A DNA stretch of 64,000 bases from Nitrospirales bacterium (lineage in GTDB: Bacteria > Nitrospirota > Nitrospiria > Nitrospirales > UBA8639), in contig CBDCWC010000003.1 of NCBI GenBank assembly GCA_965223295.1, positions 864,001 to 928,000 of the forward strand. Reading direction: 5' to 3'. Below the pieces are notes generated by a model. It ran no database searches. It saw only the letters and a list, made by a program, of their open reading frames with translations, and was not told where the DNA came from. Positions 40,796 through 58,250 of this stretch are shown here, one piece after another (position 1 is the first letter of the stretch; the number at the start of each line of letters is the position of its first letter). Both the position numbers and the translations under genes were made by a program.

Positions 40796-40825
40796 TTGAC
40801 TTCCATGTGATGCCTCTACTAGTAT
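40796..40825 (+). promoter_or_regulatory. Putative sigma70 promoter of the tRNA gene
   Basis: TTGACT-18 bp-TAGTAT, ending 5 nt before the tRNA. Confidence 0.5.
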
Positions 40826-40864
40826 CGATCCGCGGGGTGGAGCAGTCTGGTAGCTCGTTGGGCT

Positions 40865-41521
40865 CATTCCGTAGGATAATCTTGAGCACAAAGCTCAAAG
40901 GGGACATCGCAGAACAAACAGCCGTACTTCACGCTCTGAAGCATGGCTGGGGCGTTCTAAAACCACTAGGAGACCGATTGCCTTATGATCTGGTCTCTGA
41001 TGTTGGTGGGACGTTGGTGAAGGTCCAAGTCAAAGGAGCATGGTTCGATGAAAGTCGCGGCAACTTTATTGTGGACACTCGTCGAACAAAAACAAACCGT
41101 AGGAACATGGTTCGTGAGCCATATCTTCCATCGGATTTTGATTTTGCCCTTGCCTACCTTCAAGACTTTGACCTGTTCTATATATTCCCCGTTGAAGTGT
41201 TCATCAGTTATGCCAGTGAAATTCACCTGGTAGAAACTGACAAGCGGCAAAGAAAGCCACGGTCCGCTAAATACCGTAACGCTTGGGATCTCATCCTACA
41301 TTGGGCTGTACAGAAGGAAACTTCTGTATGAACACCTGTCAAATTCGGGGAAGCCACTAGCGGGGTAATCCCGAGCCAAGCTCTCTTAGTGCAAACAGCT
41401 GAGAGAGAAGGTGTAGAGACTTGATGGCAGGCACCCTAACGGCAGCGATGGCTGGCCGAGGGTGAAGGGAAAGTCCAGACCACAAACTGATCACTCAGGC
41501 AGCGGAAGCTGTAGTGGTACG
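40865..41521 (+). ncRNA. Group I intron (657 nt) in the anticodon loop, after U33
   Basis: P AAATTCGGGGAA (41341), Q AATCCCGAGC (41367), R GTGTAGAGACT (41411), S AAGGGAAAGTCC (41465), P3 CCTGTC/GGCAGG, terminal G at 41521. Confidence 0.95.
40882..41331 (+). CDS. Intron-encoded PD-(D/E)xK homing endonuclease, I-Ssp6803I-like (149 aa)
   Basis: TTG start after AGGA; MSTKLKGDIAE...LPYDLV...KVQVK...RRTKTNRR...HLVETDKRQRKPRS. Confidence 0.92.
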   Translation: MSTKLKGDIAEQTAVLHALKHGWGVLKPLGDRLPYDLVSDVGGTLVKVQVKGAWFDESRGNFIVDTRRTKTNRRNMVREPYLPSDFDFALAYLQDFDLFYIFPVEVFISYASEIHLVETDKRQRKPRSAKYRNAWDLILHWAVQKETSV

Positions 41522-41584
41522 CATAACCCAAAGGTCGAGGGTTCAAATCCCTCCCCCGCAACCAAGAACATAGAATTGACTCTC

Positions 41585-41622
41585 AAGCCCTTGTCGGGGT
41601 CACCGACAAGGGCTTTTTTTTT
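41585..41622 (+). terminator. Rho-independent terminator of the tRNA gene
   Basis: AAGCCCTTGTCGG-GGTCA-CCGACAAGGGCTT followed by a T run. Confidence 0.92.
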
Positions 41623-58165: not shown

Positions 58166-58250
58166 CCTTCGGCAACCCGGCTGTCAGGAATTATTCAGGC
58201 CTGATCCGTGGTTTTGCGTCCCGTCTTTCAACGGTTAGCCTTTTCGGGAA
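58166..58250 (-). ncRNA. c-di-GMP-I (GEMM) riboswitch aptamer
   Basis: Minus strand CGAAAAGGCTAACCGTTGAAAGACGGGACGCAAAACCACGGATC...GACAGCCGGGTTGCCGAA, matching the GEMM-I consensus. Confidence 0.88.

Follow-up and report, generated by a model that had tools for sequence, protein, structure and literature searches.

We analysed a 64,000-nucleotide (nt) stretch of DNA from a Nitrospirales bacterium (GenBank assembly GCA_965223295.1, contig CBDCWC010000003.1, positions 864,001 to 928,000 of the forward strand; hereafter the window), and we consider it very likely that the gene for the initiator transfer RNA (tRNA-fMet), the only one in this genome, is interrupted by a mobile group I intron of the tRNA-fMet/I-Ssp6803I family. 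The family is already known, and this copy is an additional member of it, not a new system. The element is real and intact and, judged from its sequence, very probably functional. The tRNA gene reads as two exons, 40831-40864 and 41522-41564, separated by 657 nt; the earlier note on this DNA had placed the break after U33, and there it lies. The parts of the element are as follows.

40831-40864, plus strand: 5' exon of tRNA-fMet, 34 nt, tRNA positions 1-33, ending in GGGCU (U33)
40865-41521, plus strand: group I intron, 657 nt, last base G, its boundaries set by the match of the exons to uninterrupted relatives
40882-41331, plus strand: homing endonuclease gene, 149 amino acids (aa), TTG start and TGA stop, in the loop of P1
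41282-41491, plus strand: catalytic core, P2 to P9, by Rfam Intron_gpI
41522-41564, plus strand: 3' exon of tRNA-fMet, 43 nt, starting with CAUAA (anticodon CAU) and ending in an encoded CCA

In genomes of the same genus that have an uninterrupted gene, the first half of that gene matches the 5' exon at 100% identity. Joined by script, the two exons form a 77-nt cloverleaf that ARAGORN calls as tRNA-Met(CAT). Bacterial initiator tRNAs are told by a CAU anticodon, an unpaired position 1:72, and three G-C pairs closing the anticodon stem, and the joined exons carry all of these marks (CAU, unpaired C1/A72, and a GGG/CCC anticodon stem). The gene is easily overlooked, as the earlier note had suspected: ARAGORN at its defaults reported 0 tRNAs across the whole window, and the Rfam tRNA model gave nothing at the locus at the gathering threshold. 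ARAGORN recovered the split gene, as i(35,657), only when long introns were allowed on a 1-kb piece, and missed it again with long introns on a 4.7-kb piece. Default finders thus pass over the split gene, and genomes like this one appear to have no initiator tRNA. The work on tRNAscan-SE 2.0 explained a missing tRNA-fMet or tRNA-Ile2 gene in 36 genomes by group I introns, and the accessible main text of that paper names cyanobacterial fMet examples only (PMC8450103).

The intervening sequence contains a complete group I core, as had been proposed. The Rfam model RF00028 (Intron_gpI) matches 41282-41491 over its full length (positions 1-253) at 62.3 bits, compared to a gathering threshold of 50 (E 2.1e-13). 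The elements of the ribozyme were placed as follows.

40862-40866, plus strand: 5' strand of P1, exon GCU plus intron CA; the splice-site U40864 reads as a U.G pair with G41304
40871-40877, plus strand: 5' strand (GUAGGAU) of an extension of P1 (P1a), in duplex with 41293-41299
41293-41299, plus strand: 3' strand of P1a (AUCCUAC), within the endonuclease reading frame
41302-41306, plus strand: internal guide sequence UGGGC, partner of exon GCU plus intron CA
41308-41329, plus strand: P2 hairpin, 8 pairs around GGAAAC
41335-41340/41426-41431, plus strand: P3, from reading of the sequence
41418-41422/41471-41475, plus strand: P7, by eye from the Rfam alignment, this pseudoknot being absent from the models
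41521, plus strand: terminal G of the intron (omega-G)

Support for this fold comes from a comparison of the last 232 nt of 38 related introns using RNAalifold, in which 35 of the 56 predicted pairs stay paired through two-sided changes. P2 corresponds to columns 42-49/56-63, and each of its 8 pairs changes on both sides in some sequences; the last column is an invariant G in 38/38. P1a, found by reading the 5' end of the intron against relatives without an open reading frame (ORF), consists of seven pairs that close the loop holding the ORF, and it covaries among loci: GUAGGAU/AUCCUAC in the window, GCGGAAU/AUUCCGC in L016, GUGAGAU/AUCUCAC in L051, and GCGAAGUUAA/UUAAUUUCGC in L019 (L numbers denote loci of the comparison set described below). 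Of 42 introns, 36 carry the guide as UGGGC and 4 as NGGGC, and 2 were not aligned; the GGGC of the guide is invariant in all 38 aligned introns, and P1 proper is thus without covariation. The CA at the start of the 3' exon may also pair with these guide bases, which would form P10.

The 149-aa protein encoded in the P1 loop is an ordinary orthologue of I-Ssp6803I. Its sequence matches the I-Ssp6803I structure entry 2OST end to end (residues 2-148, E 1.5e-67) and Pfam PF11645 (PDDEXK_5) over profile positions 1-137 of 138, with 174.2 bits against a cut-off of 26.1, whereby the reading of an intact PD-(D/E)xK endonuclease of this type is upheld. It starts with MSTKLKGDIA and contains DKRQRKPRS, both of which the earlier note had named. 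Aligned with 19 relatives, to which it is 59-96% identical, it departs from none of the columns invariant across the 20 proteins: E11, D36, Q49, K51, RRTKTNRR (67-74), K121, and Q123-P126; the first four are identical in 2OST. The suggestion of a new endonuclease variant finds no support in this alignment. Compared with the copy in the nearest locus, L001, the gene has a nonsynonymous divergence (dN) of 0.018 and a synonymous divergence (dS) of 0.163 (dN/dS about 0.11), the pattern expected under purifying selection. NCBIfam holds no hidden Markov model for this endonuclease, and PMC2175346 says nothing on the target sequence or the catalytic residues of the enzyme. The last ~40 nt of the ORF pass through P1a, the guide sequence, and P2, and a Shine-Dalgarno-like AGGA (40873-40876), 5 nt upstream of the TTG, lies inside the 5' strand of P1a. 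The frame of 149 aa with its stop inside P2 occurs in the window, in L001, and in about 17 other loci; in L002, L004, L005, L007-L012, and others, it extends to 170-193 aa through P2 into P3/P4.

The split gene is the only initiator tRNA gene of the genome, which is assembled in 3 contigs and is 100% complete with 1.07% contamination. ARAGORN found 48 tRNAs in it, and only 2 others with a CAU anticodon; both have a paired G1-C72 end and are without the GGG/CCC stem, and they look like one elongator-Met-like and one Ile2-like tRNA. The earlier note had asked for a check for another uninterrupted tRNA-fMet, and none was found: blastn of the joined exons against the genome gave only the two halves, and a pattern search of the genome gave neither another GGGCUCAUAACCC arm nor a looser version in a tRNA-like context. 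The three intron-bearing relatives G063, G043, and G009 (G numbers denote genomes of the same genus) likewise have no second tRNA-fMet copy. Given a single initiator gene in a 100%-complete genome, we infer that the intron must splice, and translation initiation in this organism would therefore depend on a ribozyme. For a check of splicing on reads, 16 sequencing runs were found; 11 recorded as RNA and 1 guessed to be RNA held 0.04-0.06 of the sampled words. In four runs, all stored as contigs, no splice joint was seen, and loose ends run from either exon into the other tRNA-fMet half; these ends are indistinguishable from spliced RNA because the uninterrupted genes of relatives have identical exons.

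The host is non-cyanobacterial and Nitrospira-like, as had been proposed: L001 is titled Nitrospirales bacterium, and the window and L001 have a chromosomal gene in common upstream of the tRNA, with 82.4% nt identity (681 nt) and 86.6% aa identity. Among 24 genomes drawn from the same genus, the two exon halves abut in an uninterrupted gene in 15, several of them 100% identical to the exons of the window, and six genomes with an uninterrupted gene match the window upstream at 67-80% identity as far as the exon border. The locus lies on a 1.94-Mb contig, and the GC content of the ORF (0.469) is close to that of the window (0.465). Judged from synteny, exon identity, and composition, the locus is neither cyanobacterial nor chimeric at this point, two possibilities that the earlier note had held open.

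The distribution of the intron in the genus is patchy. Intron DNA was found in 4 of 49 other genomes, in four different states.

G063: full-length intron, 96% nt identity to the window
G043: intron 87-92% identical, split over two contigs
G009: 344-nt intron with the ORF deleted after the third codon, the ribozyme still scoring 60.1 bits
G062 (L072 1480-1645): uninterrupted gene with an intron relic 1.7 kb downstream

In the G062 relic, which lies directly behind an unrelated gene, ~120 nt from the 3' end of the intron remain, together with a 3' exon that carries 8 mismatches and reads CAG at the anticodon. Further 31-nt matches occur in G052 and G021 (E about 8e-6). Across the phylum, the endonuclease was found in 5 of 400 other genomes sampled, 2 of the 5 with stop codons. 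To these results, a rejected finding may be added. Apparent relics of the second exon in G012 (L063) and G024 (L060), at ~1504-1546 on the minus strand, are not remnants of the intron; the BLAST match had extended 3 nt into it. Both loci carry a perfect 43-nt 3' half of tRNA-fMet, from the anticodon CAU onward, behind unrelated sequence common to the two, and G012 has a complete tRNA-fMet 7.3 kb from the partial copy. The partial copy has the look of an attachment site duplicated when a segment inserted into tRNA-fMet.

Beyond the phylum, a pattern scan with one genome per species yielded 57 loci, in which the exons were located by fuzzy matching, ARAGORN with long introns being erratic there. 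The endonuclease lies inside a 647-777-nt intron at the same junctions in 30 loci. At least nine phylum labels are represented among them: Nitrospirota, Methylomirabilota, Acidobacteriota, Cyanobacteriota, Pseudomonadota, Actinomycetota, Bacillota, and Uhrbacteria, plus the label 'Patescibacteria group' or 'Deltaproteobacteria'. In ten loci, the intron is ORF-less and the endonuclease gene lies downstream; one locus has an uninterrupted tRNA, and 16 were not sorted by the exon matcher, some ending at a contig edge and some having diverged exons. The insertion junctions are the same in all 40 intron-split loci with both exons located, the cyanobacterial ones included. In the protein database, 1618 clusters match the endonuclease at E <= 1e-20, and NCBI gives some of these, including ones from Nitrospiraceae bins, the name 'group I intron-associated PD-(D/E)XK endonuclease'. 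The endonuclease family thus occurs in many phyla, compared to its placement 'generally in cyanobacteria' in the accessible part of a review (PMC3384342).

The possibility, raised by the earlier note, that the intron is already known as widespread therefore holds in part, at the level of databases, through these clusters and names; in the literature as far as it was searched, no description of a tRNA-fMet intron in Nitrospirota was found (supplements, notably file S5 of PMC8450103, lay outside this search). In the parts available, one paper describes the spread of PF11645 as patchy and transfer-like (PMC3424549), and a 2014 review of bacterial group I introns makes no mention of non-cyanobacterial fMet hosts (PMC3984707). 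Introns go unmentioned in PMC5143459 and PMC1635315, and PMC4853749 is about other tRNA introns. The labels of some loci appear to be wrong. The upstream flank of L002 ('Patescibacteria group') is 74-80% identical over ~1.9 kb to Methylomirabilota loci (L004 and L009), and that of L005 ('Nitrospira sp.') is 100% identical to Methylomirabilota loci over the 102 nt available; both are probably mis-binned or mislabelled Methylomirabilota contigs, and bin labels are therefore to be read with care.

Movement within the genus is indicated by the surrounding chromosome. When the 680-nt upstream flanks of nine members of the genus are placed on a tree, 3 changes of intron state are required, and starred branches force at least two of them. 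The window and L001 are sisters on this tree (99/100) and on the endonuclease tree (100/99). For this pair, the adjacent gene (200 codons) gives a dS of 1.239 and the endonuclease gene one of 0.163, or 0.168 when the 13 codons overlapping P1a, the guide, and P2 are left out. The intron copies of the two species therefore have a much more recent common ancestor than their chromosomal surroundings, which points to recent lateral spread inside this Nitrospirales genus. The earlier note had allowed for an intron vertically inherited in this lineage; the counts in the genus (4/49) and the phylum (5/400), the flank tree, and the dS values do not fit such a history.

Transfer of the family between phyla is supported by another pair of loci. 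L004 (Methylomirabilota) and L007 (Nitrospirota) are 95% identical over the tRNA and intron, and their flanks have no similarity; the flank of L007 matches another Nitrospirota locus, and that of L004 matches other Methylomirabilota loci. For the window copy itself, the earlier reading of a cyanobacterial-type intron that arrived by homing between phyla is not supported: the copies closest to it come from the same genus (96% nt identity) and the same phylum (~80% aa identity). In the identity ranking, L001 is followed by Nitrospirota and Methylomirabilota at ~80% aa and by cyanobacteria at 70-76%. The endonuclease tree was built from 51 of 58 proteins, after L018, L046, L049, L052, L053, L055, and L057 had been set aside because of truncation, frameshifts, or too great a distance. 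In the careful version of this tree, the window pairs only with L001 and then joins the backbone without resolution, and nine cyanobacterial sequences form a clade of their own (93/88) with the window outside. The comparisons thus give no indication of a cyanobacterial donor. Phylum labels are clustered on the tree overall (18 changes vs 32.0 in shuffles); the Nitrospirota labels are not (7 changes for 9 rows, a value as low in 56 of 500 shuffles). The endonuclease tree was dropped as a test of the donor; neither the quick nor the careful tree resolves the backbone, and no donor lineage can be named from them.

Based on these features, the element would work as follows. Transcription from the gene's own promoter would yield a 734-nt precursor, in which exon GCU and intron CA would pair with the guide UGGGC to form P1, with a U.G pair at the splice site. 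A guanosine cofactor would cut after U33, the terminal G of the intron would then take the place of the guanosine, and ligation of the exons would release a normal 77-nt initiator tRNA. The endonuclease would cut the DNA of the intact anticodon stem-loop in intron-less tRNA-fMet genes, and repair off the intron-bearing copy would insert the intron (homing). The host's own gene would be immune because its target is split by the intron. On balance, we lean slightly toward a wider view, in which the family is not a cyanobacterial speciality but a pan-bacterial homing element, active at present, which takes advantage of the near-universal initiator anticodon arm; the genus would display the empty site, the endonuclease-bearing intron, the ORF-deleted intron, and the relic, the window copy would have moved after the species split, and its lineage would cross phyla. 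For studies of mobile-element evolution, the genus would offer a natural series for following the homing cycle.

Several points weigh against the reading of a mobile, self-splicing intron. Spliced tRNA, excised intron, and DNA cleavage are all deduced from sequence features. The sister relationship of the window and L001 on both trees would also fit inheritance from a common ancestor. The dS contrast comes from one flanking gene and one species pair, and constraint at the RNA level could lower the dS of the ORF, though the value is 0.168 without the helix codons. On the endonuclease tree, 20 of 48 inner branches have support below 80. The endonuclease gene starts with TTG, and its ribosome-binding site lies inside a helix. 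Finally, the assignment of E11, D36, Q49, and K51 as the catalytic set of the PD-(D/E)xK active site is carried over from I-Ssp6803I.

Among the alternatives, the one that most deserves attention is an old, vertically inherited, and now immobile intron whose endonuclease is a passenger, its frame kept open by chance or by the overlap with the ribozyme. The joint possession of the intron by the sisters of the flank tree (99/100) would suit such a history, as would the decay of copies in the genus, where G009 has lost the ORF and G062 retains only a relic. Against it, dS is 0.16 in the ORF vs 1.24 in the adjacent gene, dN/dS is about 0.11, and every residue invariant in the family is retained; the intron-bearing species are interleaved on the flank tree with empty ones, the site being empty in 15 of 24 sampled members of the genus. 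We therefore regard this history as improbable.

Two further alternatives concern the locus rather than its history. Should the split gene be a dead pseudogene, another tRNA would have to initiate translation. The one point in favour is that splicing is deduced, not demonstrated; yet the 100%-complete genome has no other initiator-like tRNA, the exons are unmutated compared with functional genes of relatives, every conserved element of the ribozyme core is present, and three intron-bearing relatives are likewise without a second copy, so that a pseudogene is highly improbable. An error of assembly or binning, by which a cyanobacterial or other foreign fragment was joined into a Nitrospirales contig, is the least credible of all, with next to no probability in our judgement. 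Such an error might be suspected since the element was first described in cyanobacteria and since labels look wrong for some comparison bins (L002 and L005, whose flanks recur in Methylomirabilota loci). In contrast, the exons are 100% identical to uninterrupted genes of the same genus, upstream synteny reaches the exon, the contig is 1.94 Mb long, the composition is like that of the host, and the same intron lineage occurs in four other genomes of the genus at 87-96% nt identity; moreover, removal of this gene would leave the genome without any initiator tRNA.

The mobile intron of the window closely resembles the tRNA-fMet intron of Synechocystis sp. PCC 6803. The host gene is tRNA-fMet in both, and the endonuclease aligns end to end with I-Ssp6803I (2OST), to which it is orthologous. 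The sizes are also alike, 657 nt and 149 aa in the window vs 655 nt and 150 aa in Synechocystis, the latter as given in the accessible portion of PMC1995217, and in both the ORF lies in P1 and overlaps P1/P2, as far as the entry in Table 1 of PMC3073962 goes. The ribozyme was compared with cyanobacterial copies other than that of Synechocystis, and the insertion point is the same as in the cyanobacterial loci L020 and L021 (5' exon ending GGGCU, intron ending G, 3' exon opening CAUAACC). The differences are the host (Nitrospirota vs a cyanobacterium), the TTG start codon, and the anticodon stem of the target, which is UUGGG/CCCAA in the window and UCGGG/CCCGA in the cyanobacterial loci. Natural variants facing these two stems could show how far a tetrameric restriction-fold enzyme tolerates drift of its target.

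The introns in tRNA-Leu(UAA) of cyanobacteria and plastids, tRNA-Ile of Azoarcus, and tRNA-Arg of Agrobacterium belong to subgroup IC3. They too are small ribozymes of group I that sit in anticodon loops, their short P1 being formed with the anticodon arm, but they lie in other tRNAs and at other insertion points than the intron of the window, and to our knowledge, they carry no endonuclease. Closer to the intron of the window are the ORF-less tRNA-fMet introns of cyanobacteria, which have the same ribozyme, guide, and insertion site and occur either with a separate endonuclease gene downstream or without one. Where this gene is present (10 of the 57 loci, introns of 240-282 nt), its product is homologous and it lies behind the tRNA terminator, whereas that of the window lies inside the intron.

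The ten cyanobacterial loci with a free-standing I-Ssp6803I-like gene are L015, L023, L026, L027, L029, L030, L035, L041, L046, and L049. In these, the tRNA lies at about 1540-1950 and the endonuclease gene starts from 2001, behind the terminator hairpin of the tRNA and 53-107 nt downstream in the seven that were measured. The E/D/Q/K residues are kept in all seven of the free-standing proteins that were read closely (L015, L023, L026, L027, L029, L035, and L041), and those of L046 and L049 have lost part of the N-terminus. The free-standing genes of L023 and L054 retain, at their 3' ends, a match to intron sequence as far as the P3/P4 region, which suggests that the free-standing gene escaped from an intron. 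L054 (Anabaena, 1846-2462) has an uninterrupted tRNA-fMet followed by a free-standing homologue in which three of the four active-site columns are lost (Q, gap, V, K), as would be expected if an active enzyme and an intact target cannot coexist. In L022 (a Bacteroidetes bin, 1879-2441), the endonuclease gene follows a tRNA-fMet 3' exon at a distance of ~80 nt, and the 5' exon was not located; the free-standing layout may thus also occur outside cyanobacteria.

Two candidate signals flank the split gene, and one further RNA element was found elsewhere in the window.

40796-40825, plus strand: sigma-70-like promoter candidate, TTGACT, 18 nt, TAGTAT, ending 5 nt before the 5' end of the tRNA
41585-41615, plus strand: hairpin of 13 pairs with a T run behind it, resembling an intrinsic terminator
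58168-58250, minus strand: c-di-GMP-I riboswitch aptamer

The promoter candidate is a consensus match only, with 2 such sites in the region vs a mean of 1.3 in shuffled sequence. The terminator-like hairpin is the 1 found, compared to a shuffle mean of 1.2, and the sole argument for it is its position. The riboswitch aptamer matches Rfam RF01051 at 57 bits, above the gathering threshold of 35.

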